A program made the position numbers and the translations under genes. 64,000 nt of DNA, from positions 32,001 to 96,000 of IMG/VR virus record IMGVR_UViG_3300042465_006864. One strand, written 5' to 3'. The notes under the pieces are model-generated. The model was not told the origin of the DNA and did not search any database. It saw nothing but the letters and a program-made list of their open reading frames with translations. The stretch is from a virus. Position 1 is the first letter of the stretch, and each line of letters opens with the position of its first letter. Below, in pieces: positions 19,767 through 43,773 of this stretch.

Positions 19767-19785
19767 GATACAATCATAACATAAT

Positions 19786-27210: not shown

Positions 27211-27330
27211 TATTTAAAATTACGAACGATATTGCCCGAAATAAACGGGGGTGTGGCATTTTGTCGCACCTCCAATTACGAACGATTTTTTTCTAAATAA
27301 ATTACGAACCTCTTTGCCCGAAATAAACAA

Positions 27331-28145: not shown

Positions 28146-28204
28146 CATCACCACGAAAATAAACCATACTCCTCCCCCCCACTAACAACCACAACTACAC
28201 TACT

Positions 28205-29110
28205 ATGTTTGACACACTCATTGGACAAGACCACATCAAAAAAAGCTTTGGCTTCTACATCGACGGCTCAGCGAACGGCGGCATCGTGCCTCCACTTCTT
28301 CTCACTGGTGCGCGAGGTTTGGGCAAGACAGAATACGCTCGCCAGATGGCAAAGAATCTCAAGAAGCCTCTGCTCGAACTCAACTGTTCTACCATTCGCA
28401 ACAATCGCCAGTTCTTTGAACAGATTTTCATTCCTGTGATTATGAACAACGACATTACAATCCTCTTCGACGAGTGCCATGCGCTACCAAAGGATTTACA
28501 AAATGCGTTCCTGACTGTGTTCAACGTAGAGAAAGGTTTCCGCAAGAACTTCGAGTGGGACGGCAGTTCGATGGAGTTCGACTTCTCCCGCCAAACTTAT
28601 CTGTTCGCTACAACCGAACCAGACAAAATCTTCGCTCCTCTTAAAGATCGCTTCGAAGAGATTGACTTTCGCCCCTACTCTGATGATGAGATGGCAAAGA
28701 TTCTCCAGAGTCGTGCTGATTGGGTAGAGTTTCAAGATGACGTTATGAATGAGATCGTTCCAACACTTCGCGGCAATGCTCGATCCGCAGTTAAACGCGC
28801 AAAACAAATCTGTCTCTACTGCGAGGGCAAAAACAATTATCAGTTCGGCGACAGTCAATGGAAAGATATGTGCGACAAGCTTGGTATCACTGCTGATGGT
28901 TTGTCAAACTCAGAGATTCAAATTCTTTCTGTGCTTAAACAGCGAGGTCCATGCACTCTGGCTATGCTGTCAGCTGCAACTGGATTCTCTCGCACCGCAT
29001 TGCAACGCGACATTGAGATGCACCTTCTCCGCAAAAACCTGATGCGTATCGACGGTAAACGCGAAATCACAGGTGCTGGTGTCAAAGCCCTAGAAAAACT
29101 TTCTGTGTAG
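28205..29110 (+). CDS. ruvB: RuvB-like Holliday junction AAA+ ATPase
   Basis: FDTLIGQ, GARGLGKT (Walker A), LFDECH (Walker B), ATT...PLKDRF, RGNAR and a C-terminal winged helix ending GKREIT. Confidence 0.85.
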   Translation: MFDTLIGQDHIKKSFGFYIDGSANGGIVPPLLLTGARGLGKTEYARQMAKNLKKPLLELNCSTIRNNRQFFEQIFIPVIMNNDITILFDECHALPKDLQNAFLTVFNVEKGFRKNFEWDGSSMEFDFSRQTYLFATTEPDKIFAPLKDRFEEIDFRPYSDDEMAKILQSRADWVEFQDDVMNEIVPTLRGNARSAVKRAKQICLYCEGKNNYQFGDSQWKDMCDKLGITADGLSNSEIQILSVLKQRGPCTLAMLSAATGFSRTALQRDIEMHLLRKNLMRIDGKREITGAGVKALEKLSV

Positions 29111-29406: not shown

Positions 29407-29482
29407 GCGCTTGTAGCTCAGTGGTCAGAGCAGGGGTCTCATAAACCTTTGGTCATAGGTTCAATCCCTATCAGGCGCACCA
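29407..29482 (+). tRNA. tRNA with CAT anticodon (Met or Ile2)
   Basis: Acceptor GCGCTTG/CAGGCGC, CTCATAA loop, ends ACCA. Confidence 0.9.
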
Positions 29483-29494
29483 AATCAAACAAAA

Positions 29495-29524
29495 GCTTCC
29501 GTAGCTCAATTGGATAGAGCAATA
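29495..29524 (+). pseudogene. 5' fragment of a tRNA (Arg-like)
   Basis: GCTTCCG-TA-GCTCAATTGGATAGAGC gives the 5' acceptor strand and D-arm only. Confidence 0.7.
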
Positions 29525-29525
29525 A

Positions 29526-29597
29526 GACCTCATAGTTAAAAGGATATAACCAATCTCTTCTAAAGATTAATTCCAAGTTCGATTCTTGGTGGGGTCA
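29526..29597 (+). tRNA. trnR: tRNA-Arg(TCT)
   Basis: Acceptor GACCTCA/TGGGGTC; anticodon arm AATCT-CTTCTAA-AGATT; T-arm CCAAG-TTCGATT-CTTGG. Confidence 0.85.
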
Positions 29598-29957
29598 CTC
29601 TTCAGCGTGTCGTATTCTGTGGCAATTTGCGCACAACATTACACACTTATCTAATTCGTGCGTTATCTTATCCCAAGAGCGTAGGCGCAATTTTGCCCAA
29701 TCCGCATCTTTTTTACTTGGCTCTATGTGATGAAATTCAAACACTCCAGCAGGAAAGTTGGGGTAGCGAATACCACAATCAATACACAAGCTACCTTTAT
29801 AATTAATAGCTTCTATTTTTCTTTTTTTCCACCGATTTATGCAATATAGATCGAAGCATTTGCGGCAGTGGGATGAACCATTTTTTCTGTTTTTTTGTTG
29901 ATAAAAATCGCTGATCAATTTCTTTTCTTTGCAAGAGGTGCAGGTTTTAGTTTCCAT
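29595..29957 (-). CDS. HNH-type endonuclease with Zn ribbons
   Basis: METKTCTSC...CIDCG...FEFHH...ELDKCVMLCANCHRIRH. Confidence 0.85.
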   Translation of the reverse strand: METKTCTSCKEKKLISDFYQQKNRKNGSSHCRKCFDLYCINRWKKRKIEAINYKGSLCIDCGIRYPNFPAGVFEFHHIEPSKKDADWAKLRLRSWDKITHELDKCVMLCANCHRIRHAEE

Positions 29958-30090: not shown

Positions 30091-30654
30091 ATGCAGACAC
30101 AAGAAACAATACAAGAAATCGGCAACTACGAAAGCTCACTCGACACCATCGCCTGTGAACTCCTCCAATACGTCACACCCGAGACGAAAGAACTTTATTA
30201 TGCTTTTAGCAAGGCATTGCAGTTTGACCTCAGAGAAAAATTCGGAAACGTGTTCGAAAACTTCCTCGTCACGCAGAAAACAAAAAAAGAAATTCTTAAA
30301 GAAGCTTTTGAATACTATGCCGCCGATCCTTCTCGCAGAGCAACTAACGCAGAAGGCAGTTGCAGATACCTTATGGAAGACGGTCGCAAATGTGCCGTTG
30401 GTCGCTGCTTAATCGAAGGAAAGAAAATTTGCTTTAGCGGTATGCAAAAAGACGCTATCTTTGCAGAGATCCAAGCGAATCAAATCGACAATCTCGACTC
30501 TCATTTGTTGCCAGAGTATCGGGGGCATGATGTTGGTTTTTGGCAGGAGCTTCAATACTGGCACGATAGCTGTTTGAACTTTACAGAGACAGGTTTGTCT
30601 GAAAAAGGGCAGCAGCAAGCTGAGTTTCTTTTGACAAACTATGCCGACAAATAA
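30091..30654 (+). CDS. hypothetical phage protein
   Basis: Start MQTQET after a promoter; CRY...DGRKCAVG...LQYWHD motif. Confidence 0.7.
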   Translation: MQTQETIQEIGNYESSLDTIACELLQYVTPETKELYYAFSKALQFDLREKFGNVFENFLVTQKTKKEILKEAFEYYAADPSRRATNAEGSCRYLMEDGRKCAVGRCLIEGKKICFSGMQKDAIFAEIQANQIDNLDSHLLPEYRGHDVGFWQELQYWHDSCLNFTETGLSEKGQQQAEFLLTNYADK

Positions 30655-30694
30655 CTTGACACAATCCCTAAAATCTATTACTTTTGCGCCCGAT

Positions 30695-30883: not shown

Positions 30884-30936
30884 TAAAAATTAACTTGACA
30901 CAACCCACAAAATAAACAACAATCCCTTCTCACCTT

Positions 30937-31425: not shown

Positions 31426-31959
31426 ATGCCTAATTGGACTCACAACAAACTAACCATAACAAACTCCACTCCAAAGCTCGAAGAGTTCCTCAAGGAACAC
31501 GGCTTGTCTTTTGAGGCTATCGTAAAACCAGAGCGTCCTGAGAATTACGGAGATGGTTGTTCTACTATCGCCGCCCAAACTGATGCTTGGGGAACTAAGT
31601 GGGACTTGGATGAAACCGAAGCAAAAGAAACCGCCGCTTCTCTTTTAGAGAATGACGAATGTATTTTCGATACAGCATGGTCGCCACCATCGGAAGCGAT
31701 TCGCGCACTGAGCGAGTTGACTGGTGCGTCTTTTCTTCTTGCTTACTATGAGCCAGGATGTTGGTTCTGGGGAGTGGAAGACATCTCCGAAGGTTTCATC
31801 TACCCCGAGTTAGATAGCAATGAAACACAAGAGCAGCTCCACGAATTTCTTGTCCAATACATGGACTACAGCACCGAAGAGGCTACTGAAGCTGTAGGCT
31901 GGGACGAAGAGGACGAAGAGGAAGAAGAAGAGAAGGAGGAAGAAGAATCCAAGGCGTAA
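31426..31959 (+). CDS. DUF1281/YubB-like ferredoxin-fold protein with acidic tail
   Basis: MPNW..N.L, WGTKWD, FDTAWSPP and YYEPG motifs. Confidence 0.8.
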   Translation: MPNWTHNKLTITNSTPKLEEFLKEHGLSFEAIVKPERPENYGDGCSTIAAQTDAWGTKWDLDETEAKETAASLLENDECIFDTAWSPPSEAIRALSELTGASFLLAYYEPGCWFWGVEDISEGFIYPELDSNETQEQLHEFLVQYMDYSTEEATEAVGWDEEDEEEEEEKEEEESKA

Positions 31960-31990
31960 ATGCCAAACGCCAAATAAGCAAATAACAAAT

Positions 31991-32019
31991 AAGCGCACTG
32001 GGAAACTGGTGCGCTTTTC
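31991..32019 (+). terminator. terminator ending the plus-strand early block
   Basis: AAGCGCACTGG-GAAA-CTGGTGCGCTT followed by TT. Confidence 0.65.
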
Positions 32020-32113
32020 AATTATGCCCCCGATCTAATCAAATAATGCCAAATAAGGAATGAGTGCGCCTAAATAAGCGATAGGGGGAAATGATGGTCA
32101 AAAGTGATATGCA

Positions 32114-32200
32114 TAAACCGTTGAGCGTCAACGAGTTACAGCAAAATGACCCCTACGGGGTCTTCTCCGTGTAAGTCGTTCATTATCAACAACTTATGAC
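32114..32200. repeat. 87-bp dyad element, copy 1 (central loop TAC)
   Basis: TAAACCGTTGAGCGTCAACGAGTTAC...GACCCC-TAC-GGGGTC...GTAAGTCGTTCATTATCAACAACTTATGAC. Confidence 0.95.
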
Positions 32201-32209
32201 GAGCAGTCG

Positions 32210-32296
32210 TAAACCGTTGAGTTTCAACAACTTACGGCGAAACGACCCCGTAGGGGTCGCGTGGGTGTAAGTCGTTGAGTATCAACAACTTACGAC
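32210..32296. repeat. 87-bp dyad element, copy 2 (loop GTA), tandem to copy 1
   Basis: Direct sequence match to the consensus. Confidence 0.95.
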
Positions 32297-32340
32297 GATG
32301 ATTAACCCTACCCCCGCCAAGGGGTAGGGCATACCATGTA

Positions 32341-32601
32341 TCACTTACCGTTAGAAAGGTCTAGCATATCTTCAGCCAATATCGAGATGAGTTCTTCCGT
32401 GTATGCATACGGATCATCGCCGCATGATTGAGCGAGTCTTTCAATCGCATCCCACAGCATAATGCGGGGGCGGTTCTCGTCGTCCTCGTCAACCAAGGCA
32501 CAGCAGAGTTGGTCAGCTGTTAGATCGGGAACTTGTGAAAGAAAGTGTCCCGCAGCGCGGAGATATAGGGCGGCATTTTTCGGGTCGTTAAGGTCTGTCA
32601 T
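32341..32601 (-). CDS. hypothetical cassette protein
   Basis: Own TTGACA...TAACTT promoter 9 nt before the ATG. Confidence 0.7.
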   Translation of the reverse strand: MTDLNDPKNAALYLRAAGHFLSQVPDLTADQLCCALVDEDDENRPRIMLWDAIERLAQSCGDDPYAYTEELISILAEDMLDLSNGK

Positions 32602-32613
32602 AACAGGGAAAAG

Positions 32614-32814
32614 TTAGTTGTTTCGGGGGGAGTTGTCAAGGTTATTTTCGGGAGTGAGATAGATTTTTCCGTAAGATGTTTCTAACGAAAAAGAGCCGTC
32701 TTGTAACTCCACAAAGTTTTCCATGGTATACATGGATTGTCCGATTTCATCCATGATGCGAGCAACAGCCACTTCATCCAGATCATCGCGAGGAATATCA
32801 ATAGTAATTCTCAT
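32614..32814 (-). CDS. hypothetical cassette protein
   Basis: Own near-identical promoter. Confidence 0.65.
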   Translation of the reverse strand: MRITIDIPRDDLDEVAVARIMDEIGQSMYTMENFVELQDGSFSLETSYGKIYLTPENNLDNSPRNN

Positions 32815-32913
32815 AGAAAGAAAAGTTAGTTGATTTGGGGGGAGTTGTCAAGTATTATGCGCTCAATGCTAGAATAAAAAGCAGGAACGCAAGAAACAAA
32901 ATTTGTCCTATGG

Positions 32914-33612
32914 TCATGCAGGTTCAATCACAAAGCCCGAAGAATCTTTTTTCGCTTTGCCTTTTTCGACAAGCCCGACAATGACGTTTTGAGGGTCAAG
33001 AAAGCGCAGGTCACTTTCGTCACCGCTAACGACACGATACCCTTTCCAATTCTCAGGAAGCGAGCCACGGAAAACCACGGCAACATTTCCACCACTGGCA
33101 AGAATAGCGTCAACCAATTTTTCGTTAGACTCAGAACGGGAGAACGTCAACTGATAGTTCGATGGAAATTCACCAGTCAAGAAAGCACTCATTCGTTGCG
33201 CTGACTTGGTATAGTCGTAGAAGGTCACTTGAGGAAACAAATCAAAAACAGTTTTGCCGTTCAGTTTAATTTTTTCCCAAGGAAGATCGCTTGTAAGGTT
33301 CAAGCGGAAACAAGGAACAAGATTTTTCTTTTGCGCCGATTTGATTGCGGCAGCTATCTCTTTCACAAGTTGCGCCATGAACAAAGCCTTATCTTGAAAG
33401 AAGAATTTTGTTTTGGCGATACGGGCAGCTTGAACAGTTGCGAAGATTCCATGTCCCGAAGTGTCAAGACAAGCAGCCTCACAGCCAACGCTTGAATGCT
33501 GGCAGGTGTTGTAGCCCGATTTTGTGCTAGGCGCGAGGTGAACGCCGAACGTCTGGAAGCCTTGAGCTTCCCCTTTTTTGATTTTGCTATTTGAAGTAGT
33601 TAGTAATTTCAT
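32914..33612 (-). CDS. Gp88-like phage protein, paralog 1
   Basis: MKLLTTSNSKIKK...LAP..C..C...CL...RLNLTSDL...FYDYTK...LTFSRSE...GDESDLRFLD. Confidence 0.75.
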   Translation of the reverse strand: MKLLTTSNSKIKKGEAQGFQTFGVHLAPSTKSGYNTCQHSSVGCEAACLDTSGHGIFATVQAARIAKTKFFFQDKALFMAQLVKEIAAAIKSAQKKNLVPCFRLNLTSDLPWEKIKLNGKTVFDLFPQVTFYDYTKSAQRMSAFLTGEFPSNYQLTFSRSESNEKLVDAILASGGNVAVVFRGSLPENWKGYRVVSGDESDLRFLDPQNVIVGLVEKGKAKKDSSGFVIEPA

Positions 33613-33652
33613 GCGGAGAAAAGTTAGTTGTTTCGGGGGAGTTGTCAAGAAT

Positions 33653-34012
33653 TTACCACCAAGAATCGTAAAAAACTTTCTTGCCGTCCTTGATAGCTTG
33701 GCGAGCCGTTGCGATAAACTCCAGGGTTTTTTGCTTGTAGTGGTCATCATCGCGAGAATCAGCACCAAAAAAGAAACCTTGTGTTTCTGGCAAACTGCTA
33801 CCAAGAATGTCTTGCTCCAGTTTGTCAAGATTTTCCATATTGAGTTCCAGCGGAATGCAGTTGAAGGAGCCATCTTCATCATGCTTCTTGGGGCAACCTT
33901 GTTTTTCCCACAGGTTTTCCATCCAGCCATGCAGCGCGTTATGCTTGCGCCAGTAGGCGATTTCTTCTTTGTTTTTTCCTTTTGTAGTGTATGCGAATTG
34001 ATCGAGTCCCAT
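33653..34012 (-). CDS. conserved phage protein
   Basis: MGLDQ...YWRKHNALHGWM...GFFFG...FYDSWW family signature. Confidence 0.75.
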   Translation of the reverse strand: MGLDQFAYTTKGKNKEEIAYWRKHNALHGWMENLWEKQGCPKKHDEDGSFNCIPLELNMENLDKLEQDILGSSLPETQGFFFGADSRDDDHYKQKTLEFIATARQAIKDGKKVFYDSWW

Positions 34013-34145
34013 AGTATTGATTAGTTAGTTGTTAGTGATTTCGTGACGGGCAAAGAATATCATTTTGCGGCAGAGTGTCAACATTTATTTGATTAAAAAA
34101 TAAAAAAAAATAAACCTTGACAATCTCAGGCAATCGCTCAAGTCG

Positions 34146-34232
34146 TAAACCGTTGAGCGTCAACGACTTACGCCAAAACGACCCCGAAGGGGTCGCGTCG
34201 ATGTAACTCGTTGAGTGTCAACGACTTATGAC
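34146..34232. repeat. 87-bp dyad element, copy 3 (loop GAA)
   Basis: Direct sequence match. Confidence 0.95.
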
Positions 34233-34271
34233 AACCCCGCTTGCGCGGGGGTTGTCAAGTCTTTTTTTCGC

Positions 34272-35072
34272 TTAGTCGCGGAAGTCCGTTCCGTCGAGTT
34301 CGGGCGCGTCCTCGCATCCCTTGGTGACAATCTCCTGCACCTCGATTACAGGGGCGTGACTCGCCACACGGTCAAAGATGCTTTGAGTGGTCATCGTGCG
34401 GAAAGGCAGCTTGCTAAGGTCGCCCCCTTTGAGGTTCTCAGTGATGGAATTGTAAAGACTCCAGAGAGTGCGTCCCTTGAACTCTTCATGGCGCGGATTG
34501 CGGAACTCTTCAATCGCGGCGTAAATGTCGCGAGCGGGGAACGCTTTGGAATCAACAAGCGTCACCATCAGATCAGCCGCTTGCGCGTCACTGATTTCCG
34601 TGGTTTTATAGCGATCAATGCGCAAGCCCATATCGTTCCAATGAGACACAACGCGCCCCACGGCATCGCCAAGCACGCGAGGCAAATCGGTTAGAATGTT
34701 GAGGGTGTGGCGGCGAGCGAGCTTCACATCAGAAGCGAAGCAAAGATTCTCGCAAACCATCATGCGATTGCCGATGCAGACAGCGGCAGCAAAAGCCTTG
34801 TCGTGAGAGTTGCGCAAGCCAAGCACCACTTGGCGATCATCGCCAGAAATGCCCTTGCCAGTGAGTGCAAAGCCGCCGAAGTAGCGCAAGCCGCCACGGT
34901 GCAAAGCGTGTTCCTCTTCCAAGACAGTAAGACCAGCGTTCTCGATTGCCTTACGGGTGAGTGTGACAAGCAGGTCGTGAGGAATCGGGGTGTGTGACTC
35001 AGTAGCAGGTGGGGTTTCCACGCCGATGAGTTGCTCGAAGTTGACTTTGTTTTTTGCGATGATGAGTGCCAT
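34272..35072 (-). CDS. DUF932 family protein
   Basis: HTPIPH...LGLRNSHDK...RMMVCENLCF...RRHT...LWSLYNSITE. Confidence 0.8.
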   Translation of the reverse strand: MALIIAKNKVNFEQLIGVETPPATESHTPIPHDLLVTLTRKAIENAGLTVLEEEHALHRGGLRYFGGFALTGKGISGDDRQVVLGLRNSHDKAFAAAVCIGNRMMVCENLCFASDVKLARRHTLNILTDLPRVLGDAVGRVVSHWNDMGLRIDRYKTTEISDAQAADLMVTLVDSKAFPARDIYAAIEEFRNPRHEEFKGRTLWSLYNSITENLKGGDLSKLPFRTMTTQSIFDRVASHAPVIEVQEIVTKGCEDAPELDGTDFRD

Positions 35073-35267
35073 AATGGTAGTAGTAGTTAGTTAGTTTTGA
35101 AGTGTGCCAGTCATTGGCGACGAGGAAAGTGTAGCATTTCGGACGGAATTGTCAATATGTTTTTTGTATTTTTTCACAATTATTTTTGTGCGATTGCGCG
35201 AAAAAAGTTCTTGACACTCTCTAACAGAAAACCTCTAACAGATTTTTACTTACAGCAGTAATCTTCG

Positions 35268-35354
35268 TAAACCGTTAAGCGTCAACGACTTACAGCAAAA
35301 CGACCCCTTCGGGGTCGCATCGGCGTAACTCGTTGATACTCAACAACTTATGAC
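35268..35354. repeat. 87-bp dyad element, copy 4 (loop TTC)
   Basis: Direct sequence match. Confidence 0.95.
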
Positions 35355-35690
35355 GCTTAGAAAATCCCCCACCAGAAGTAAGCTGCAATCAGTCGGGGCA
35401 TGAAGCCCCTTGTCCTTCTGGCGAGAGAAAAATTATTTCTTTTGTTCTGCTATCTGCTTCTTGCCATCGCGCCTAACAAGTTTATTTTGTGCGCGTTTTC
35501 TATCGCGTAGATGTTTCCACCATTCGACAGTTCTAACAGAACCTTTTGATTTACTTGATGAAGCCACGACATTCTTTTTTGTTAGATTCTTTTTTGCGAT
35601 CCTTGAGGGCAAAGCAAGGGGGAGGCATAGGATGACGGCTTAGGTTGCGCATGTCAAGAGAATTTTGCGCGAGTTGTTTTTTGTGGCGTT

Positions 35691-36044
35691 TCATGCTATA
35701 GCTTGGTAGATGATTGGAATGTGAGTGCGAGCGGGTATTCCCATTTCTTTACACACGGCAGCGAAGTCTTTTCCGTGGAAACTACGGCGACCATTCTTAG
35801 TAAGAAGAAAACGATTGCCGTTGCGCTTCCACTGAATGTGATGAGCAATCTCATGCTTCAACACTTCGTCGAAAGTTTTGAAAGAGCAGAGAATGCGTTT
35901 GCTTAGTTTGATTTTACCTTCAGCAACATAAGCAAGACCAAGATGACGTTCAGAGTTCATCCATTGAATTTTGAGATGAGACATGCTCCATTGCTTTAGA
36001 GTCATGCGGATGTATTGTTCGATTTCGGAAGTGGTGGCAAACAT
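35691..36044 (-). CDS. SprT-like zinc metalloprotease
   Basis: LGLA...IKLS...VLKHEIAHH...HGKDF. Confidence 0.8.
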   Translation of the reverse strand: MFATTSEIEQYIRMTLKQWSMSHLKIQWMNSERHLGLAYVAEGKIKLSKRILCSFKTFDEVLKHEIAHHIQWKRNGNRFLLTKNGRRSFHGKDFAAVCKEMGIPARTHIPIIYQAIA

Positions 36045-36056
36045 GGCGGCGAAAGT

Positions 36057-36269
36057 TTAAGGTTTTTGGGTGGTGGTGTCAATCTTTTTTTTTAATTGTT
36101 TTAAATTAAATTCAGTTCTTATTTTGCAAGCAGTAAGAGCAAAAGAGGGAATCAAAAAACCCATAGAACAAAACATAATCAAACCATCCAAAACAGTGCA
36201 GAGACCCTGCAAAGCGAAAAGTGGATATTCTAACAAATGAACTCTTTTTTTAACAAAGTGAATTTTCAT
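36057..36269 (-). CDS. small membrane protein
   Basis: Hydrophobic ORF with its own TTGACA promoter. Confidence 0.6.
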   Translation of the reverse strand: MKIHFVKKRVHLLEYPLFALQGLCTVLDGLIMFCSMGFLIPSFALTACKIRTEFNLKQLKKKIDTTTQKP

Positions 36270-36317
36270 GGCGGCAATAGATTAGTGTTTTTTGGGGAAG
36301 TGTCAACATATTTTTAA

Positions 36318-36674
36318 TCAAAAAGCAGCAAAAACTTGTCTGCCATGCAATAGCACTTCTTCTGCGCGAAAGATGTTAGAACCTTGGCACTGAAACTGAT
36401 CGACCTCATACGGGTTATATCTAACAGAAAGAAAAAACTTATTAGATTGGATGCCAGAAACTAACGTGCCAATGATGAATGCGTGAACATTCTTCTTTTT
36501 CTGTTTAATCACACGCTGACGACCAGCTTCCGATACTTTGAATTGCGCGTTTCTAACGCAAGCGTGTTCCAAGTGACAAACGACTTTCCAGCGTCCGTCA
36601 ACTTTTGTCTGGACAGACAACTTTTTCTTGTGGAGGTTAAAGTAGATTCTAACGATTTGATTGAGTGGTAACAT
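36318..36674 (-). CDS. conserved phage protein
   Basis: VRIYFNLHKK...FKVSEAGRQRV...KKNVHAF...YNPY family signature. Confidence 0.75.
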   Translation of the reverse strand: MLPLNQIVRIYFNLHKKKLSVQTKVDGRWKVVCHLEHACVRNAQFKVSEAGRQRVIKQKKKNVHAFIIGTLVSGIQSNKFFLSVRYNPYEVDQFQCQGSNIFRAEEVLLHGRQVFAAF

Positions 36675-36725
36675 GGCAAGAGAAAAATACACTTTCTGCG
36701 GCTATTTGTCAACAACTTTTTGCGA

Positions 36726-36780
36726 ATAAATAGCAAATAAATAGCAAATAAATAGCAAATAAATAACCTTCAAATAACCT
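36726..36780. repeat. short tandem repeat (AATAAATAGCA)n
   Basis: Three to four tandem units followed by AAATAACCT twice. Confidence 0.7.
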
Positions 36781-36825
36781 TAGGGGTAGGAGAGGGGGAA
36801 TCTAACAGATTTTAAGCAGGATGCG

Positions 36826-36912
36826 TAAACTGTTGAGTATCAACGACTTACGGCAAAACGACCCCTACGGGGTCGCGGCGGTGTAACTCGTTCATTATCA
36901 ACGACTTACGAC
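36826..36912. repeat. 87-bp dyad element, copy 5 (loop TAC)
   Basis: Direct sequence match. Confidence 0.95.
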
Positions 36913-37013
36913 GATTGTCTTCGCGCTGCAATGTCAAGACTTTTTTTTGACAATTTTGGGGAGCGGTTAAACCATAAACCGCTCCCCGTTTTGCCAATGC
37001 CACCAGAAAATTG

Positions 37014-37244
37014 TTAGACTTCGAAGCCTTCTTCTTCTAACAGTTCCACAACTGCATCTTGCGCGATGTTTTGCAATTCGGAAAGGTGTAAGCCGTCCCC
37101 CCATCGCTCGATGAGTTCTTCCATTTCATCGAGAGCGTTCATCACACAGGGCAAGTCGGGCAAGTCAGCGAGAGACAAGCTGCCCGACATTCTGAGGCAG
37201 ATGTTATTCATTATCGTTATGCAGCGTTTGCGATTGTTAGTCAT
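37014..37244 (-). CDS. hypothetical cassette protein
   Basis: Own promoter; stop codon lies within GTCTAAC. Confidence 0.7.
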   Translation of the reverse strand: MTNNRKRCITIMNNICLRMSGSLSLADLPDLPCVMNALDEMEELIERWGDGLHLSELQNIAQDAVVELLEEEGFEV

Positions 37245-37284
37245 GGCGGGGATATGTTAGTTGTTTTGGGGGGATTGTCAAGAT

Positions 37285-37470
37285 TTATTTTCTGTTTTTA
37301 AGTATTTCTTCCAATTTGTTTTTATCGTAAAAGAAGCTATCTTCATTCAATTTACCGAAGAAAAAAGATTTTGGCTCATCAGTGTCACTGATCTCATAGT
37401 CAAGAGAAGACAAGATTTCATAAATGCTTGTGAGTAGGTGAACGGGAACTTCAATAGTTTGATTTGACAT
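37285..37470 (-). CDS. hypothetical cassette protein
   Basis: TACTCT-TTCCCCGCC-ATG promoter module. Confidence 0.65.
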   Translation of the reverse strand: MSNQTIEVPVHLLTSIYEILSSLDYEISDTDEPKSFFFGKLNEDSFFYDKNKLEEILKNRK

Positions 37471-37590
37471 GGCGGGGAAAGAGTAGCAGAAAAAACCAAT
37501 CAGCGCAAGTATTTTCTTTGATTATTTTTGAAAAAAAAGTTTGTCATAAGTGCAAAAAAACTTGACAAGTGTCACTAGTTTATCAAGTCA

Positions 37591-37677
37591 TAAACCGTTG
37601 AGCGTCAACAACTTACGACAAAACGACCCCGAAGGGGTCGCGTCGATGTAACTCGTTGAGCGTCAACAACTTACGAC
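37591..37677. repeat. 87-bp dyad element, copy 6 (loop GAA)
   Basis: Direct sequence match. Confidence 0.95.
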
Positions 37678-37729
37678 GATTGCGATTGAGTGTTAAGCCA
37701 GCCCCGAAGGGCTGGCTGTGTATTTTTCG

Positions 37730-37879
37730 TTAGACGAACTCCAGAGTGCCTAACGGAACTTCATCCTCGCGCCCATCCTCAAAGCGGATGAGTGCGCGAT
37801 TTCCAACTGGAGTATTTACAACTTCGACAAGCTCAACTTCTGAGCCACAGTAAATGACGATTTCGATTTCTTCGATCAT
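37730..37879 (-). CDS. small hypothetical cassette protein (49 aa)
   Basis: Start MIEEIE after TATTCT-TTCCCCGCC; stop within GTCTAAC. Confidence 0.65.
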   Translation of the reverse strand: MIEEIEIVIYCGSEVELVEVVNTPVGNRALIRFEDGREDEVPLGTLEFV

Positions 37880-37984
37880 GGCGGGGAAAGAATAGAATGT
37901 TTTTGCGGTTAAGTCAACAAGTTTTTTTGTTTTTTTTTGCATTTTTTTTGAGGGGACGGCTTTCGCCGCCCCCTCTGCCATGCA

Positions 37985-38281
37985 TCAAGCCACCACGCTT
38001 GAAAATTGTTTGTCGATCTTGCCACACTTGAAAAGCAAAACCTTTTCAGGTTTGAAGCAAAAGTAACCGTTACGGTTGCGGTCAACGGCGAACATATAAC
38101 CGTCTTGACGGAGCGCATCAGTAGCAGGGGAACCAGTTCCCTTGACTAGACCAGTGAAACGATCTTTTGCGTTAATCGTGCGGATTGTGCCATCTTTCTT
38201 GACAAAAGTGAGGGAAAAGAATTTTCCTTTTGTTGCTTCGATGAGGGCTGTGATTTCTTCTTTTGTTGGTGCGTTTTGCAT
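37985..38281 (-). CDS. SH3-fold/WYL-like small phage protein
   Basis: GKFFSLTFVKKDGTIRTIN motif; start MQNAP. Confidence 0.65.
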   Translation of the reverse strand: MQNAPTKEEITALIEATKGKFFSLTFVKKDGTIRTINAKDRFTGLVKGTGSPATDALRQDGYMFAVDRNRNGYFCFKPEKVLLFKCGKIDKQFSSVVA

Positions 38282-38342
38282 GATGTTTATTTGGTTAGTA
38301 GTAGGCGGGGAAAGTGTAAGCGGTTTTTTGAAGTTTGTCAAC

Positions 38343-38528
38343 TTATTTTTTGCTGTTTTGAATAAAAGTTTGCAAACGTGCAAGAGTGTAGCAAGTTGCG
38401 CCGAAAACAAGGAAACAAATACAATCAAACAATTCGTTTTTTCCGCCATAAATGGCGAAAGCGCAAAGGCTGAAAGTAGGCGAGAGGGTGACAATAGCGG
38501 AGGCAATGATGGTAAATGCATGTTTCAT
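38343..38528 (-). CDS. small membrane protein
   Basis: Two hydrophobic segments; own promoter. Confidence 0.6.
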   Translation of the reverse strand: MKHAFTIIASAIVTLSPTFSLCAFAIYGGKNELFDCICFLVFGATCYTLARLQTFIQNSKK

Positions 38529-38698
38529 TTTTTTTTGGTGTTGTTAGTAGGCGGGGAAAGAATAGTCTTTTTTTTGGCATCCGTCAACATTTTTTTTGTT
38601 TTATTTTCGAAAAAAAGTTTTGTCATAATGTGTTTTTTTTCTTGACAAGTTTCTAACAGAAAATACTTTTTTGACTTGTTAGGCATCATGCATCTGCA

Positions 38699-38785
38699 TA
38701 AACCGTTGAGCGTCAACGACTTACGCCAAAACGACCCCGAAGGGGTCGCGTCGATGTAAGTTGTTGAGTATCAACGACTTATGAC
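38699..38785. repeat. 87-bp dyad element, copy 7 (loop GAA)
   Basis: Direct sequence match. Confidence 0.95.
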
Positions 38786-38957
38786 GATTGTCATCGCGCT
38801 ATGTTGTCAAGATTTTTTTTTCACTTTTTTTCTGTTAGAGAGCGCCCCCCTTTTTTCTGTTAGAGAGGCGCTGAGTCTAACGATTTTTATTTTCGGTCCG
38901 CTATCAGGAACAGCAGCACCGCAACAATCAAGAGAAAAATCATTTTTTTGTTAGGTG

Positions 38958-39653
38958 TTAGTGTTCGATCACGAAACCGCTTTCGTCTTTTTTCGCCTTG
39001 CCTTTCTCGACAAGTCCAACAATTTTTCCCGCGCCATCAAGAAAGCGTAAATCCGTTTCATCGCCATTTACAACGTCCACGCCTAACCATTTCGAGGGTA
39101 GCGACTTTCTGAAAACCATTGCGACATTGCCGCCCGATTTCAAAATTGATTCTGCGATTGCGCCGTTTGTTTCAGACTTGGAAAAAGTCAAATGATAATT
39201 TTGCGGCATTTCACCAGCAAGAAAAGCGGTCATGCGTTCGGGGGATTTTGTGTAATCATAGAATTGCACACTAGGAAACAAATCAAAAACACTTTGCCCG
39301 TTGAGTTTGATTTTCTCCCATGGTAAATCACTGGTAAGATTGAGGCGGAAAACAGCAGTGAGATTTTGCTTTTCGGCAGATTTAACGGCGGCAGTAATTT
39401 CTTTGATTAACTGCGACAAGAAAACAGCTTTATCCTTAAAGAATAAACGAGTTTTTTCGATGCGTGAATTTTGCACGTTGGAGAATGCGCCCATGCCAGC
39501 AGTATTGAGACAGGCAGCGGCACAACCTGCGCTTGCATCTTTGCAGACGTTGAAGCCAGAGAGAGAGGCGGGAGCGAGGTGAATTCCGAACGTGCGGAAA
39601 CCGATTTTTTCACCTTTGCGGATTTTAGCATTTGCTGTGGTAAGTAATTTCAT
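38958..39653 (-). CDS. Gp88-like phage protein, paralog 2
   Basis: Colinear with and highly similar to 32914..33612. Confidence 0.75.
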   Translation of the reverse strand: MKLLTTANAKIRKGEKIGFRTFGIHLAPASLSGFNVCKDASAGCAAACLNTAGMGAFSNVQNSRIEKTRLFFKDKAVFLSQLIKEITAAVKSAEKQNLTAVFRLNLTSDLPWEKIKLNGQSVFDLFPSVQFYDYTKSPERMTAFLAGEMPQNYHLTFSKSETNGAIAESILKSGGNVAMVFRKSLPSKWLGVDVVNGDETDLRFLDGAGKIVGLVEKGKAKKDESGFVIEH

Positions 39654-39704
39654 GACAGGGAAAAGTTAGCAGATTGAGAAAAAAAGTCAACAGTTTTTTT
39701 TGTT

Positions 39705-39881
39705 TTATTTCAGATTTTGCACAGTGTGAGAAATTCTGATGAACCAAGCGCAAGAAGCCAAGAAGCCAATGATTGCGCAAGCGTGTGATTCTGTGGTGGT
39801 GGATTGTGCGCCCCAAACAATGAACACGATGCACATAATGAGTGAGATGATCGAAGAGGCAAGGATGATGAAGTATTTCAT
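39705..39881 (-). CDS. small membrane protein (58 aa)
   Basis: Manual translation MKYFIILASSIISLIMCIVFIVWG..., after TTCCCCGTC. Confidence 0.6.
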   Translation of the reverse strand: MKYFIILASSIISLIMCIVFIVWGAQSTTTESHACAIIGFLASCAWFIRISHTVQNLK

Positions 39882-40031
39882 GACGGGGAAAAAGTAGCAT
39901 TTTATAAGCTAACGCGCAAGTATTTTTTTCTATTTTTTATTTATTTTTTTTTGCGTCATAGTGCATTTTTTTGTTGACAAACTCCTAACAGAAAACGCTT
40001 TTTTTAGTTGTTAGAAGCCTAACAGATTTCG

Positions 40032-40118
40032 TAAACCGTTGAGCGTCAACGAGTTACACCAAAATGACCCCTTCGGGGTCGCCTCGACGTAAGTCGTTGA
40101 GTATCAACAACTTATGAC
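40032..40118. repeat. 87-bp dyad element, copy 8 (loop TTC)
   Basis: Direct sequence match. Confidence 0.95.
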
Positions 40119-40143
40119 GATTCGAGGCGCAGCGTAAGAACTG

Positions 40144-40395
40144 TTAGAAGTCGCCGCAGCAGCCATCCATGCCCCACTCGCTGATCTCATGGCGATCTTC
40201 GTAGGCGGCATCGAGCCAATAGTCTTCGTTGCCTTCGTCACTGTAATCCGTCCAATGCCCATCGAGGTGGGAGTCATCAAGAAAGATTTCTTCTGGAGGG
40301 TCAGGGAGTTGATCGGCAGCGTCTGCGAAAGCTTCGCAAGCGGCAACATATTCTTCGTATTCGGCGGGGCAGTTGATGAAAGGGTGGTTAAACAT
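40144..40395 (-). CDS. very acidic small protein (possible DNA mimic)
   Basis: 83 aa, D/E-rich with almost no K/R; TATAAT-TTCCCCGTC-ATG upstream. Confidence 0.7.
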   Translation of the reverse strand: MFNHPFINCPAEYEEYVAACEAFADAADQLPDPPEEIFLDDSHLDGHWTDYSDEGNEDYWLDAAYEDRHEISEWGMDGCCGDF

Positions 40396-40535
40396 GACGG
40401 GGAAATTATACTCCGAAACACATAGAAACGCAACAACTTTTTTCTATTTTATGCAAAAAAAAAGTTTTGTCATAAAGCGTTTTTTTTCTTGACAAACATC
40501 TAACGAAAAAAGGTTTTTAACACGCTGCGTCTTCG

Positions 40536-40622
40536 TAAACCGTTGAGCGTCAACGACTTACGCCAAAACGACCCCGTAGGGGTCGCGTCGATGTAACTCG
40601 TTCATTATCAACGACTTATGAC
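40536..40622. repeat. 87-bp dyad element, copy 9 (loop GTA)
   Basis: Direct sequence match. Confidence 0.95.
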
Positions 40623-40693
40623 GATTGTATTTTTTTTTATTTTTTTCTTGACAAGGGAGCCAGCCTTGCGACTGACTCCCGATCTGTTAGATG

Positions 40694-40945
40694 TTAGACT
40701 ACGAGGTCAATTCCAGAGATGTGAAGATTGCGATATTTACTTTCGCCGCCATCATCAACGTCTAACGCTTTTACAGTGACGTATCGCTTGCCGTTCGCGG
40801 CAAATGCTACTTTGTCCACCGCTTCAATCTTGAGAACGCGAACGCCATCAGCTTTGACTTTCGAGTTTTCAGCAAAGTAGCGCACGGTTTTGTTGACGAG
40901 GGCGGAAACGACTTGTTCGGTAGGTGTATTGTAATCGAAGAACAT
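40694..40945 (-). CDS. hypothetical cassette protein
   Basis: Own promoter; stop within GTCTAAC. Confidence 0.7.
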   Translation of the reverse strand: MFFDYNTPTEQVVSALVNKTVRYFAENSKVKADGVRVLKIEAVDKVAFAANGKRYVTVKALDVDDGGESKYRNLHISGIDLVV

Positions 40946-40979
40946 AACGAGGAAAAGATAGAAGATTTTTGCGGTATTG

Positions 40980-41177
40980 TCAAGATTCTTTTATGAAAAC
41001 TGAGATTATCCAAGCGGAACAGCAAGCAGTGAAAAGAGAAAGCGATCCCAAAAGATAAGTTGTCATATTTTGAGGGCAGCACACAAGAAACGAAAGACTT
41101 GCAAGCGGAGATAAAAAGCCGCTAGTCACAAGACAAATAGCGATAGTTGATTTGATATTTTCGATGGTTGATTTCAT
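40980..41177 (-). CDS. small membrane protein
   Basis: Two hydrophobic segments; own promoter. Confidence 0.6.
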   Translation of the reverse strand: MKSTIENIKSTIAICLVTSGFLSPLASLSFLVCCPQNMTTYLLGSLSLFTACCSAWIISVFIKES

Positions 41178-41243
41178 AGTAGTTAGTTGGTTGCGAGAGA
41201 AAGATAGAAGATTTTTGCGAGATTGTCAATAAGTTTTTTTGAT

Positions 41244-41555
41244 TTATTTTTCGACAATCTCAAAAACTGTTGTGATGTATTCGCGCACAGTGCAGAATGT
41301 TTTCGTGGTGATGTTTTCCCAAGGGATGATTTGTTCAATCACTGCGCCATAGTTGCAGTATTGAGCAAGACCTTCAGTCCTTGTAACACCCATGATTTCA
41401 TCACCTACTGCGTAGGTTTTGATTTGACCATAACCATAGTCAATCGTCAATTCAACTTTTGCAAAGTATTTATCCTCATATTTTTCTGTTGCTTTGTTAG
41501 CAGTATTGAGGGCGATTGCTTTATATTGTGGCTTGAGGTTAGGTTGAGCGTTCAT
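41244..41555 (-). CDS. hypothetical cassette protein
   Basis: Start MNAQP after a TACACT-TTCCCCGTC module. Confidence 0.6.
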   Translation of the reverse strand: MNAQPNLKPQYKAIALNTANKATEKYEDKYFAKVELTIDYGYGQIKTYAVGDEIMGVTRTEGLAQYCNYGAVIEQIIPWENITTKTFCTVREYITTVFEIVEK

Positions 41556-41718
41556 GGTTAGTATTGGTTGACGGGGAAAGTGTAACGCATAACGCATGAA
41601 AGCGCAAGAACTTTTTTATCTTTTTTTCTTTTTTTATTTTGCGGCATAATGCATTTTTTTCTTGACAAAACTCTAACAGAAAATGTTTTTTCGTGCATAG
41701 TATAGCACAGCGTATGCG

Positions 41719-41805
41719 TAAACCGTTGAGCGTCAACGACTTACGCCAAAACGACCCCGAAGGGGTCGCGTCGATGTAAGTCGTTGAGTATCAACAACTT
41801 ATGAC
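41719..41805. repeat. 87-bp dyad element, copy 10 (loop GAA)
   Basis: Direct sequence match. Confidence 0.95.
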
Positions 41806-41890
41806 GATTGTTATTGTGCGATGCTGTCAAGTTTTTTTTCGTTAGACTAACAGTTTTTTTTCTGTTAGCCTAACGGTTTTTTTCGTTAGA

Positions 41891-42073
41891 CTAACGGATT
41901 TGAATGAAGTGCAGTGACTGATAGCCAACCCAACCTTTTTCAAAGATGGCAAAGTTTTTTTCATCCCAATGCGAAAAAATTCCGTAGTTTGTTTTTGTTC
42001 CTTTTGTTAGAAGGCTAACAAGTTTTGCGTGAACGGCGGCGAAGTAAGCGGGAGTAAGTGAAGAAGTTTTCAT
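41891..42073 (-). CDS. hypothetical protein
   Basis: TACACT-TTCCCCGTC-ATG. Confidence 0.65.
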   Translation of the reverse strand: MKTSSLTPAYFAAVHAKLVSLLTKGTKTNYGIFSHWDEKNFAIFEKGWVGYQSLHFIQIR

Positions 42074-42102
42074 GACGGGGAAAGTGTAACGGTTTTTTCG
42101 GA

Positions 42103-42279
42103 TTAACGCAAGCTTTTTTTTGTTTTATTTATATTTTTTATTTCGACCATTCCATTTACTTCGTGAGCTATTTTTTCAGCCTTAGCAAGCAATTCTGAGA
42201 ATGTTGAACCGATATTGTTAGGAGCGAAACAATTAACGAATGCGCCTTCTGAGTTTCTGATGATAATGAGCTTTTTCAT
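42103..42279 (-). CDS. hypothetical protein (58 aa)
   Basis: Manual translation MKKLIIIRNSEGAF..., after TACACT-TTCCCCGTC. Confidence 0.6.
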   Translation of the reverse strand: MKKLIIIRNSEGAFVNCFAPNNIGSTFSELLAKAEKIAHEVNGMVEIKNINKTKKSLR

Positions 42280-42356
42280 GACGGGGAAAGTGTAGCGGTT
42301 TTTTGCGATGAAGTCAACAATTTTCTTTTGTTTTTTTTGGGGGGGAGTATTGGAAC

Positions 42357-42563
42357 TTATGCCAGTTCCTCGGCTTCGATGATGTCATCATCGTGCAGGT
42401 GCTTGGGGTGAAAAGGGCAAGCACCAAGAAAACCAACATAAGATTTTTCATTGGCAGTAAACTCGACTTCCCAGTCTGCCCAATTATCATCCACACGATC
42501 AGCGATGGAAACGAAAGACAAGTCGGAAACGGTGGATGCGGAGAATTGAAGTAACTTATTCAT
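42357..42563 (-). CDS. hypothetical acidic protein
   Basis: TATACT-TTCCCCGTC-ATG. Confidence 0.65.
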   Translation of the reverse strand: MNKLLQFSASTVSDLSFVSIADRVDDNWADWEVEFTANEKSYVGFLGACPFHPKHLHDDDIIEAEELA

Positions 42564-42915
42564 GACGGGGAAAGTATAACCTGAAACGCGTAGAAACGCA
42601 AGAACTTTTTTGTGTTATGCGAAAAAAACTTTTGTGTCATACGTGAAGAAAAAACTTGACAAGACCCCCCCTATTTCTCAAAAAATGCGCAATAGTTCTG
42701 TTAGAAAAGAGCGGGGGGGATACTATTCTCAGTCTCCCAAACTCCCACCAACATCACTCCCCACCCAGAGCGCCAGACGGTGTTCTGTGCTGCTCCGCAC
42801 CAGACCCCCCACCCCTTTTGTCAAAATCGCGAGACACATTCTCAGAACAACCTAAAAAAACCCAAAAAAAATCCCCCACCCTGTTTTCATAAAACCTTTT
42901 GTAATCAGAAAAAAG

Positions 42916-42921
42916 GTGTAA
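42916..42921 (+). promoter_or_regulatory. putative late promoter motif GTGTAA (representative copy)
   Basis: Same hexamer lies 8-9 nt before the ATG of eight genes (see findings). Confidence 0.7.
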
Positions 42922-42930
42922 TACTTTACG

Positions 42931-43773
42931 ATGTCAGTTATACGATACGAAAATATTCCAGTCTCTATGCCCCGAAACGATTCGGCTGGTAAGAAATACA
43001 TTGCACCCGCAAACAGTGTATCTATTTCTCATTCCGCGAAAACAAATGCATATAGAACTCTTGCCCCGAATACTTTTCCAGAAATGAGAGTTGGCGGCAA
43101 CACAGATACCAAAATAACTATCGCATTTCCGCTGTGCAACAAGTTTGCCAATAATGTTTCTTCTGCTGATTCATACAATTTCGGATCAGGCGTTTTCGCT
43201 AATCTTACAGGAACAGGCAGCACTGACATAACAATCGGGAATCGAACATTCAGTGGATGTTATCTTGACAGCTTGTCTATAGACATTGCGCCATTTCAAG
43301 CTGCAACGATGTCCACCTCTTTTACATGCACGAATCCACCTACAGGTCTATCAATGCTTTCGGGGCTAAGTACAGGTGAAACAAACATGACCAGCAAATT
43401 TGCATATGGTCATTTCGCAGTACTTTCGGGGGCTGATAATTATTCTTCTGATGTTCACTCTAGCATTTCCTTTTCTCTTGATTTAAAAAGAACCTATTCC
43501 TATGCAATTTCTAAGCGCAACGCTTACAATGTCTTTTTGGATGAAGCAAACAAGCAACTACAAATAAAAGCAACAAACATAAAAACATTTATCAACGAGT
43601 CTGGAGCGCTTTCTTCTTTTTCTGTTGATTTAAAAAATGAATCGGGTGAATACGTTTTGCCATCAGGAACGCTGTCAACTTCTTCTCGCGGCAGATTAAA
43701 TGCACAAAATCTATCTTCTTCGCCGCCAAATATTTTCATCGCAGATGTAACTATTGACGAACCATTGCTCTAA
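42931..43773 (+). CDS. putative structural (tail-associated) protein
   Basis: 280 aa, S/T-rich; late motif upstream. Confidence 0.6.
   Translation: MSVIRYENIPVSMPRNDSAGKKYIAPANSVSISHSAKTNAYRTLAPNTFPEMRVGGNTDTKITIAFPLCNKFANNVSSADSYNFGSGVFANLTGTGSTDITIGNRTFSGCYLDSLSIDIAPFQAATMSTSFTCTNPPTGLSMLSGLSTGETNMTSKFAYGHFAVLSGADNYSSDVHSSISFSLDLKRTYSYAISKRNAYNVFLDEANKQLQIKATNIKTFINESGALSSFSVDLKNESGEYVLPSGTLSTSSRGRLNAQNLSSSPPNIFIADVTIDEPLL

Follow-up and report, generated by a model that had tools for sequence, protein, structure and literature searches.

The closest published analogue of the locus studied here is, by our comparison, the promoter(early)-stem-loop (PeSL) cassette of T4-type phages, with which a preliminary description of this DNA had also compared the locus. 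In two reports (PMC2839356, PMC4122927), a PeSL combines a stem-loop terminator, an AT-rich stretch and an early promoter, occurs in hyperplastic regions, and takes part in exchange by homologous recombination, and can form mini-circles. Here we analyzed a 64,000-nt stretch of viral DNA (the window; IMG/VR record IMGVR_UViG_3300042465_006864, positions 32001–96000), in which an 85-base element, present in ten co-oriented and gap-free copies, stands between early transcription units in a lake phage that has not been cultured. The genome is a single 133,831-bp contig of the IMG/VR class direct terminal repeats, with a CheckV completeness of 100%. The repeat-punctuated array of small early phage genes recognized in the preliminary description is borne out by our analysis, and our tentative interpretation, which we hold with some reserve, is that the element is a composite, two-layer boundary module for transcription units in the early region of a lytic lake phage.

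The locus resembles PeSL in several respects: a repeated composite motif with a GC-rich stem-loop, an AT-rich stretch and a strong sigma70-like promoter, flanked by small genes of no assigned function, lies in a hyperplastic early region, where the indels of relatives fall at repeats (15 of 30 boundaries in promoter zones and 5 of 30 at element edges) and no dedicated recombinase is found. All three PeSL parts are present here, spread over ~250 nt, and the promoter also occurs alone before genes within a cassette. The locus differs from the PeSL so described in that its stem-loop is flanked by two conserved 27-bp palindromes (arms) at fixed distances, its promoter lies 119–194 nt away and is repeated before every gene, even genes without an element, and its arm family is spread well beyond a single phage group. 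We do not consider the element to be a member of PeSL, since the palindromic arms are new and the phage is of an unrelated lineage, outside the T4 superfamily.

Other repeat systems share some of these properties. Repetitive extragenic palindromes (REPs) and the bacterial interspersed mosaic elements (BIMEs) of enterobacterial chromosomes are one such class, and BIMEs are thought to act as DNA, through protein binding and the management of supercoils, as well as in mRNA. Like our elements, they are extragenic palindromes (for REPs, see PMC8266576), paired or clustered at the ends of transcription units; the elements here, however, reside in a phage and not in a chromosome, are accompanied by no REP-associated tyrosine transposase (RAYT/Y1), are not high-copy in bacterial chromosomes, and have arms that start with GTAA instead of GTAG and form near-perfect 12-3-12 dyads around a GC-rich core. 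The match to a REP family that the preliminary description had considered was thus not seen: the genome has no Y1 transposase, and the arm was found at only 8 loci in species genomes. Cassette arrays with integron attC sites or Vibrio cholerae repeats (VCR) likewise have conserved repeats of imperfect symmetry that separate small genes of one orientation, and their gene content varies; in our locus there is no IntI-type tyrosine recombinase, each gene has its own promoter, cassettes hold 1–4 genes, and their order is largely conserved. MITEs (miniature inverted-repeat transposable elements) differ from the element in that we found neither a target-site duplication nor element-only presence or absence. 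Finally, the stoperators of Cluster A mycobacteriophages are sites of 13–17 bp. According to PMC9283540 they are asymmetric and bound by a monomeric immunity repressor. They resemble the element in that many copies of one conserved site occupy short gaps between genes, have the direction of transcription and could in principle halt elongation; the sites here are paired 27-bp dyads, and in this phage no integrase was detected and no repressor was found.

A profile built from the ten copies was used with nhmmer, which returned the element at window positions 32112, 32208, 34144, 35266, 36824, 37589, 38697, 40030, 40534, and 41717, in agreement with the ten co-oriented copies first reported. Since the plus-strand scores (92.6–107.6 bits) exceeded the minus-strand scores at the same sites (47.6–61.6 bits) for 10/10 copies, the element has a defined orientation despite its near-symmetry. 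Each copy is built of a 27-base palindromic arm (12-3-12), 7 nt, a GC hairpin (7-3-7), 7 nt, and a second 12-3-12 arm, so the arms do lie exactly 7 nt from the hairpin; in copy 10 (41718–41802), for example, arms at 41718–41744 and 41776–41802 enclose the hairpin CGACCCC-GAA-GGGGTCG at 41752–41768. The constant length with variable bases that had been noted extends to relatives, as 96 alignment columns were free of gaps over 34 distinct copies from the window phage and its relatives (a 35th copy straddling two loci and hits below 50 bits were left out). Only four loop sequences occur in the central hairpin, GAA, TTC, GTA, and TAC, all of them GNA or the complement of GNA, in either orientation, with one GCA exception in the relative designated E. 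A 35-nt core pattern in IUPAC code matched 19 times in the window (10 on the plus strand and, owing to the symmetry of the element, 9 on the minus strand) against 0.00 expected from 100 dinucleotide shuffles, and when all 133,831 bp of the genome were scanned with a fuzzy pattern, neither the arms nor the GC hairpin turned up outside the ten copies. The element is a real feature, statistically beyond doubt, with a chance expectation of none.

From 42563 to 32341 every gene is encoded by the minus strand, and 1–4 of them lie between neighboring copies, except between copies 1 and 2, which stand in tandem 96 nt apart (start to start) with no gene between them, as initially described, at the place where plus-strand genes converge on the minus-strand early region. 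It had also been stated that the small genes carry promoters of their own; we found that 16 gene starts in 32341–42563 match a strict pattern (TTGnnn-N16-18-TAnnnT, 5–14 nt, ATG), and a consensus scan added five more promoters. These putative early promoters look sigma70-like and nearly leaderless. Most early starts have TTCCCCGYC directly before the ATG, leaving ~3 untranslated bases, and since the promoters adjoin the start codon (TAnnnT, nine bases, ATG) without a Shine-Dalgarno sequence, nearly leaderless mRNAs are predicted. An example at 42074–42111 on the minus strand reads TTGCGT-N17-TACACT-TTCCCCGTC and abuts the ATG at 42073 (repeat families D2 and D3), and the same promoter type is found outside the array at 5648–5687, 18771–18810, 28133–28172, 30647–30686, and 30886–30925. 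Packing within the cassettes is tight, a promoter overlapping the end of the preceding gene. The elements sit in the larger gaps, in 10/10 cases after a stop codon and before a promoter, 28–107 nt past the stop codon and 119–194 nt ahead of the next start codon. An AT-rich repeat that may be regulatory (family D7; 38591–38671) is found in 4 copies, at 38591, 39923, 40438, and 41611, between the element and the promoter of the next gene, and contains TTGTCA/TTGACA boxes and a CTAACAG box.

On the minus strand, which is the gene strand, the central hairpin of all ten window copies has a GC stem of 6–8 bp followed by TTTT (9/10) or TTTC (1/10), and no T-run follows it on the plus strand; read as RNA, with UUUU or UUUC after the stem, it therefore has the layout of an intrinsic terminator. 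All copies were assigned to the minus strand. Copies 1 (32113–32197), 2 (32209–32293), and 3 (34145–34229) continue in the sense direction from GGGGTCA into TTTTGCT, from the hairpin into TTTCGCC, and from the hairpin into TTTTGGC, respectively; in copies 4 (35267–35351) and 6 (37590–37674) the central hairpin is itself a minus-strand terminator-like site (35318–35300 and 37641–37623), copy 8 (40031–40115) contains another at 40080–40066, and copy 9 (40535–40619) was recovered as an nhmmer match. A strict terminator scan passed 4/10 copies, all of them on the minus strand. We regard the core of the window lineage, in which the arms are spaced 58 nt apart, as a predicted terminator of bona fide appearance that was added in this lineage. 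The preliminary description had placed further terminator-like hairpins just beside several copies. Five such hairpins exist, of which four (32306–32329, 34231–34255, 36958–36987, and 40655–40681) were read from the sequence; the terminator scan accepts just one, an extra GC hairpin at 37696–37717 that separates copy 6 from the end of a gene, and its T-run is on the plus strand only, antisense to the genes. Two ideas on promoters next to the elements were discarded. TTGACA boxes to the left of copies 3, 4, and 6–10 might have driven plus-strand transcription into the elements, but the consensus scan lists no plus-strand promoter there, and the idea of small-RNA genes was dropped; just upstream of copies 3, 5, 7, and 10 there is a minus-strand TTGACA box and an A-tract, yet any TAnnnT lies at a spacing of 20–23 nt. 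Contigs from RNA libraries cover parts of several cassettes, including one 151-nt record that spans copy 4, and are uninformative on transcript ends, strand, and level. In the contigs of the four public runs compared, joints next to elements have short sides or unassigned inserts, as repeats would give, and only the joint at 36082–36310, described below, was interpreted.

The arms belong to a much larger family. In 185,579 bacterial and archaeal species genomes (one genome each), the arm pattern occurred at 8 loci: two (at least) that are phage-like (L020 and L023), 4 single palindromes in Fibrobacter, and single arms in L021 and L025. L020 (1–3927) carries 11 arms in 42-nt pairs between small genes, whereas in L023, which codes for homologues of window phage proteins, there is one arm. 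As both contigs look like fragments of phages related to the window phage, they are probably mis-binned in their metagenome-assembled genomes (MAGs), which are labeled Enterobacterales and Flavobacteriaceae. Metagenome contigs yielded at least 119 loci with at least 625 arms, and at least 110 of the loci have two or more arms. Among the matches listed, 167 of 280 arm spacings of up to 120 nt were exactly 50 nt (the rest include 42, 48–53, and 58 nt), most arms formed such pairs about a GC-rich core and were set between early genes (GP88, DUF932, and L5-gp82-like) next to a conserved PhoH-sigma-ERCC4-TerL module, the contigs had a GC content of 34–61% and came from marine and freshwater sources, and 49 of the 119 loci gave blastx hits in the window phage genome, mostly with GP88 (22), DUF932 (21), gp82-like (13), and also the PhoH-sigma-ERCC4-TerL module as targets. 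Over 162 distinct 50-nt pairs, the commonest base was found in 80–90% or more of the pairs at most arm positions, while the 23-nt core retained its composition only (88% GC); positions 5 and 8 of the half-site differ between lineages. Arms can also lack the GC hairpin, and they form runs of as many as 7. When pairs were oriented by the cover of open reading frames (ORFs), their flanks proved strongly asymmetric (101 pairs with full flanks): T-runs peak 20–40 nt upstream, and ~100 nt of 65–69% AT, rich in A-runs and -10-like words, follow downstream. A sense-direction terminator lay within 120 nt upstream in 25/105 pairs, its T-run at a median of 27 nt before the pair, and downstream in 2/105 (antisense direction: 6 and 3); only 2/112 oriented cores read as a hairpin plus TTTT. 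Around the GP88 genes of the cultured phages HTVC120P, Bylgja, and Limnohabitans DC31 there were no convincing arms in 9–17 kb, where the arm pattern with 5 mismatches gave five scattered hits (2, 3, and 0, respectively). Blastn of the region and of the element returned no match in 50,697 GenBank phage records, and the four half-site strings of the arm occurred in the full texts searched only as unrelated primers. Topical searches of that literature gave no description of the elements; an IMG/VR survey of MITEs (PMC11602168) might list such elements in its supplements. The arm family is large, widespread in aquatic phages, and apparently undescribed.

Covariation in this family bears on how the arms pair. 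The element had been said to fold either as three hairpins or as one long hairpin, and on the window lineage the two are equal: with little covariation, 91.5% of the cells are paired in three hairpins and 92.1% in one long hairpin. Over the family, 86 informative positions with compensatory changes favor pairing within an arm vs. 28 that favor pairing between arms, and thus each arm constitutes its own dyad. The centers of the two arms were complementary in 2/162 pairs, below the 11.4 expected after permutation, so that a single long palindrome seems to be avoided. Over the wider family, the choice between the two structures thus falls on separate arms.

Relatives in IMG/VR (17 loci on 12 contigs by the core pattern) allowed cassettes to be compared. 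Close relatives B, C, D, F, I, and M retain the cassette order, and all of these except M carry one additional 736-nt cassette with one element between copies 6 and 7, at the slot of copy 7 (38698–38782). The relative A/H, 75–83% identical, is without the DUF932 cassette and has three tandem elements at the position of copy 5 (36825–36909), at whose right edge, 36914, the homology with A stops; at the slot of the extra cassette of B, relative A has a single-gene cassette, the gene being a 44% homologue of the one at 41891–42073. Relatives E and K have the TerL-side module in common with the window phage at 65–75% protein identity, and their array is at the same place. Their early genes are unrelated to those of the window phage despite a TerL that is 75% identical, and only one of them (in K) gave a blastp hit; the promoter type and the arms are retained, the latter as a perfect dyad, GTAACTCGTTGA-N3-TCAACGAGTTAC, in runs of 2–7 and sometimes without the GC hairpin. 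In K, ordinary terminators are placed ahead of the arm clusters. Chaining blastn blocks of at least 200 nt against B, D, and A produced 15 gaps with 30 boundaries. Promoter zones contained half of the boundaries (15/30), several others were no more than 35 nt away from such a zone, and 5/30 were at an element edge. Because relatives share some of the gaps, the boundary counts are not independent, and the five edge boundaries amount to three distinct sites, all right edges (36914, 38788, and 40122). A promoter-to-promoter deletion (36090–36267) in B and A was matched by a joint at 36082–36310 in a contig from a DNA run. Against B, D, and A, no orthologous site showed presence or absence of the element only, and tandem copy number alone varied.

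We propose, tentatively as said, that the boundary module works in two layers. In the window phage and its near relatives, CGACCCC-NNN-GGGGTCG followed by UUUU would stop host RNA polymerase arriving from the upstream gene cluster, and the next, nearly leaderless promoter 119–194 nt further on could then fire undisturbed. Family-wide, the two 27-bp arms would be independent, sequence-conserved dyads that act as DNA, either as sites for a dimeric factor, as extruded hairpins (cruciforms), or as both; set after the end of a unit and before the AT-rich stretch upstream of the next promoter, they may serve as a barrier or insulator. The conserved sequence, the self-complementarity of the arms, the lack of a strand bias over the family, and the fixed place together point to a DNA-level boundary site, bound or extruded, which is close to the DNA-structure signal array that the preliminary description had named as an option. 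The elements and promoters being repeats, ordinary homologous recombination between them, as at T4 PeSLs and without a dedicated recombinase, would yield the gains, losses, and swaps of genes among relatives. Several observations weigh against this interpretation. The U-tract is short (4 U) and 6/10 copies fail the strict terminator scan. The core is without a terminator T-run in 2/4 cases in E, 2/3 in K, all of L020, and 110/112 oriented metagenome pairs among the matches listed, and termination therefore cannot be the common function of the family; in the crude scan, 80/105 oriented pairs were also without a separate upstream terminator. Orientation could be assigned to 112/259 distinct pairs, the remaining 147 being dropped. 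A stability bias toward the sense strand in the window, A, and L020 lineages fits a role as RNA better than one as DNA, and the compensatory changes specific to each arm could stem from hairpin-templated repair instead of selection. Since the copies are mutually related, the counts do not represent independent events. Moreover, no HTH_3 protein was found in the genome, and no arm-binding protein was identified.

The sense-strand bias speaks for an element that acts purely as RNA, the gene-strand transcript folding as three hairpins or as one hairpin of ~38 bp that protects 3' ends or is cut by host RNase III, in the way that RNase III separates the early mRNAs of T7 at R sites, a type of site with some 20 bp or more of duplex RNA. 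The sense RNA folded more stably than the antisense RNA in 10/10 window copies (mean −41.1 vs. −35.3 kcal/mol), 9/9 copies of relative A, and 4/4 elements of L020 (gaps of 10–16 kcal/mol), and sense-strand G-U pairs outnumbered A-C mismatches 25:8 (window), 31:7 (A), and 13:3 (L020). In addition, the minimum free energy (MFE) structure of the full-length sense RNA is one long hairpin of ~38 bp, which in the 4 copies folded reached −37.8 to −46.2 kcal/mol and z-scores from −3.9 to −6.4. Nevertheless, we think a purely RNA-based element unlikely. Relatives E and K are mixed (sense stronger in 5/8), and among the 112 oriented pairs the sense MFE was lower in 50 and higher in 61, with G-U at 116 vs. 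A-C at 144 among arm mismatches, indicating that the bias of the three lineages is not general. The covariation described above backs separate arms, and on the window lineage itself it does not separate the two structures. Where a terminator precedes the pair, as in 25/105 cases, little RNA should reach the pair, and the second arm is located past the U-tract. No Rfam family matched the window elements at the gathering score or the region 31900–42100 at E up to 1, and the complete genome gave no RNase III match (control genomes were matched), though the host enzyme would suffice. The arms could also be operators of a regulator of timing, such as a repressor for early shut-off or a roadblock of the stoperator kind, instead of a constitutive insulator. 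Dyad symmetry, the conserved sequence, the preferred 50-nt spacing of paired sites (167/280, among the matches listed), and the confinement of the arms to the early region of the genome would all suit an operator, as would the presence in the same region of a second operator-like motif, CTAACAG (22/34 copies in 11 kb), and stoperators offer a precedent (PMC9283540) for a repressor that halts elongation at many sites. Yet a distance of 119–194 nt to the next start codon is too far for simple promoter occlusion, spacings of 42, 48–53, and 58 nt break the helical phase, no regulator was identified (the genome has no HTH_3 protein), and arm-specific compensatory change is not expected of four half-sites read by a single protein, which makes timing operators improbable in our judgment.

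It is about equally improbable that the elements are recombination sites, at which cruciforms resembling Holliday junctions would be processed by a RuvB homologue, an ERCC4 nuclease, or another recombinase, and cassettes would be exchanged in co-infection. What speaks for such sites is that the arms are retained where the early genes are unrelated at 75% TerL identity, that cassettes differ between relatives (the extra cassette with its element in B, C, D, F, and I, and the single-gene cassette at the same slot in A), that three homology breaks coincide with right edges of elements, and that three metagenome contigs (L030, L052, and L055) have a permuted order. A full-length RuvB homologue (28205–29110; E 2.6e-12 to a solved RuvB) lies on the other side of the array from TerL, and a nuclease with an ERCC4 domain (E 2.3e-6) and an N-terminal C2H2 zinc finger (46757–47692) lies on the TerL side; either of these genes borders the array in 9 of the listed metagenome contigs, as well as in E and K, and the loops occur as reverse-complement pairs (GAA/TTC and GTA/TAC), as expected if hairpins form in vivo. 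The complete genome, however, had no match to Phage_integrase (PF00589; found in 14/14 genomes by the control search), Resolvase, or Y1_Tnp (PF01797; control genomes matched for both), which extends the earlier statement that no recombinase is visible from the window to the whole genome. Cassette order, which it had been suggested to compare, is conserved in the close relatives and, as DUF932-pair-GP88, in about 16 of the 19 listed distant loci that hold both genes, the three permuted contigs being the others. Breakpoints are mostly at promoters, so that, apart from the three edge sites, they are largely unrelated to the element. This pattern, along with the missing recombinase, is as expected of homologous exchange between any repeats and not of a dedicated site-specific system, and the dedicated cassette-shuffling system inferred in the preliminary description is not supported, given also that the genes have their own promoters; differences at the level of cassettes do exist, in the extra cassette, the three edge breaks, and the three permuted contigs. 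Junction enzymes encoded beside a terminase gene would, moreover, be ordinary debranching functions for packaging. A more far-reaching version, in which sequence-recognized, cruciform-forming pairs, the RuvB homologue, and the zinc-finger ERCC4 nuclease make up an integrase-free exchange of early, probably anti-host cassettes across a widespread marine and freshwater clade, seems to us slightly less credible again. Least credible is a selfish mobile element of miniature size, similar to a MITE or a REP, which would have spread in intergenic gaps without a function for the phage. Its short build resembling terminal inverted repeats, many copies, strictly intergenic position, tandem arrays (96-nt period in the window and three in a row in A), and concerted evolution within a genome could be taken for such an element, but the lengths of flank duplications in 255 pairs were distributed as in a re-paired control, which means no target-site duplications, no otherwise conserved site showed presence or absence of the element alone, and the genome has no Y1 transposase. 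The near absence of the arm from the species genomes (8 loci in 185,579) and its fixed place relative to terminators and promoters across a clade with proteins 35–70% identical also argue against a selfish origin.

The 27-bp arm identifies a class of intergenic signals of uncultured aquatic phages that is large and, it appears, undescribed. Under either reading, boundary site or recombination site, the arm can be used as a cheap sequence tag for the early region and for relatives of the clade in metagenomes. The signal stands at the borders of early genes of the host-takeover type, the part of phage genomes with the fastest turnover and the least understood. If the arms are boundary sites, bound by protein or extruded as cruciforms, they would represent a new way for phages to shield strong promoters that are closely packed; as recombination sites, they would explain the exchange of early gene sets without an integrase.

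Five products of the array have Pfam names, namely two GP88 paralogues, an L5-gp82-like protein, a DUF932 protein, and a SprT-like protein. On the TerL side of the array are genes for a possible tail tube protein, PhoH, a sigma-70 region-2 protein, the ERCC4 nuclease with its zinc finger, and TerL, whose best cultured matches are SPbeta-like phages at 23% identity. The conserved genes comprise those for GP88, DUF932, the gp82-like protein, the RuvB homologue, and the ERCC4 protein, the gene at 33653–34012, and genes for proteins of 350 and 280 aa. All 18/18 public runs that hold half or more of the words of the stretch are lake-water metagenomes. An actinophage host, suggested by Pfam names (L5 gp82 and GP88) and the leaderless starts, was considered and set aside: no WhiB was found in the genome, the top GP88 matches belong to phages of Pelagibacter, Xanthomonas, and Limnohabitans, and related contigs are binned with Bacteroidota and Enterobacterales MAGs.

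Some further repeats and genes were observed. The 7-mer CTAACAG/CTGTTAG (R/Y allowed at one place), which looks like a second operator-like signal, has 22 of its 34 genome copies, on both strands, within the 11-kb early region (32000–43000). Three near-palindromic copies with T-runs between them form a cluster at 41847–41900, to the right of copy 10, where the exact 15-mer CTGTTAGCCTAACGG starts at 41862, and many stop codons of the minus strand lie within the motif. At 26032–27301 there are nine copies of ATTACGAAC, on the plus strand only, each with AAATAAAC ~10 nt later (families D5, D9, D10, and D13), and these repeats may represent a second class of promoter, e.g., for the phage's own sigma factor (45032–45721). 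Three neighboring ORFs at 9527–10800 have 59- and 56-nt repeats in common (families D14 and D15) and are tandem paralogues, and two adjacent ORFs of 126 and 127 aa at 19386–20169 form a 300-nt duplication that is 88% identical (family D4). Seven tRNA genes are arranged in two clusters, at 12765–13652 (Glu, Thr, Tyr, Pro, and Gln) and at 29407–29598 (Met and Arg). An Rfam match to the abiF RNA was obtained at 55441–55477 on the plus strand, with 42.1 bits against a gathering score of 37. The 448-aa virion structural protein encoded at 13671–15017 (phrog_1645) is 61–64% identical to proteins of Synechococcus cyanophages and Puniceispirillum phage HMO-2011, a much closer match than was seen for the other genes tested, suggesting horizontal spread among aquatic phages.

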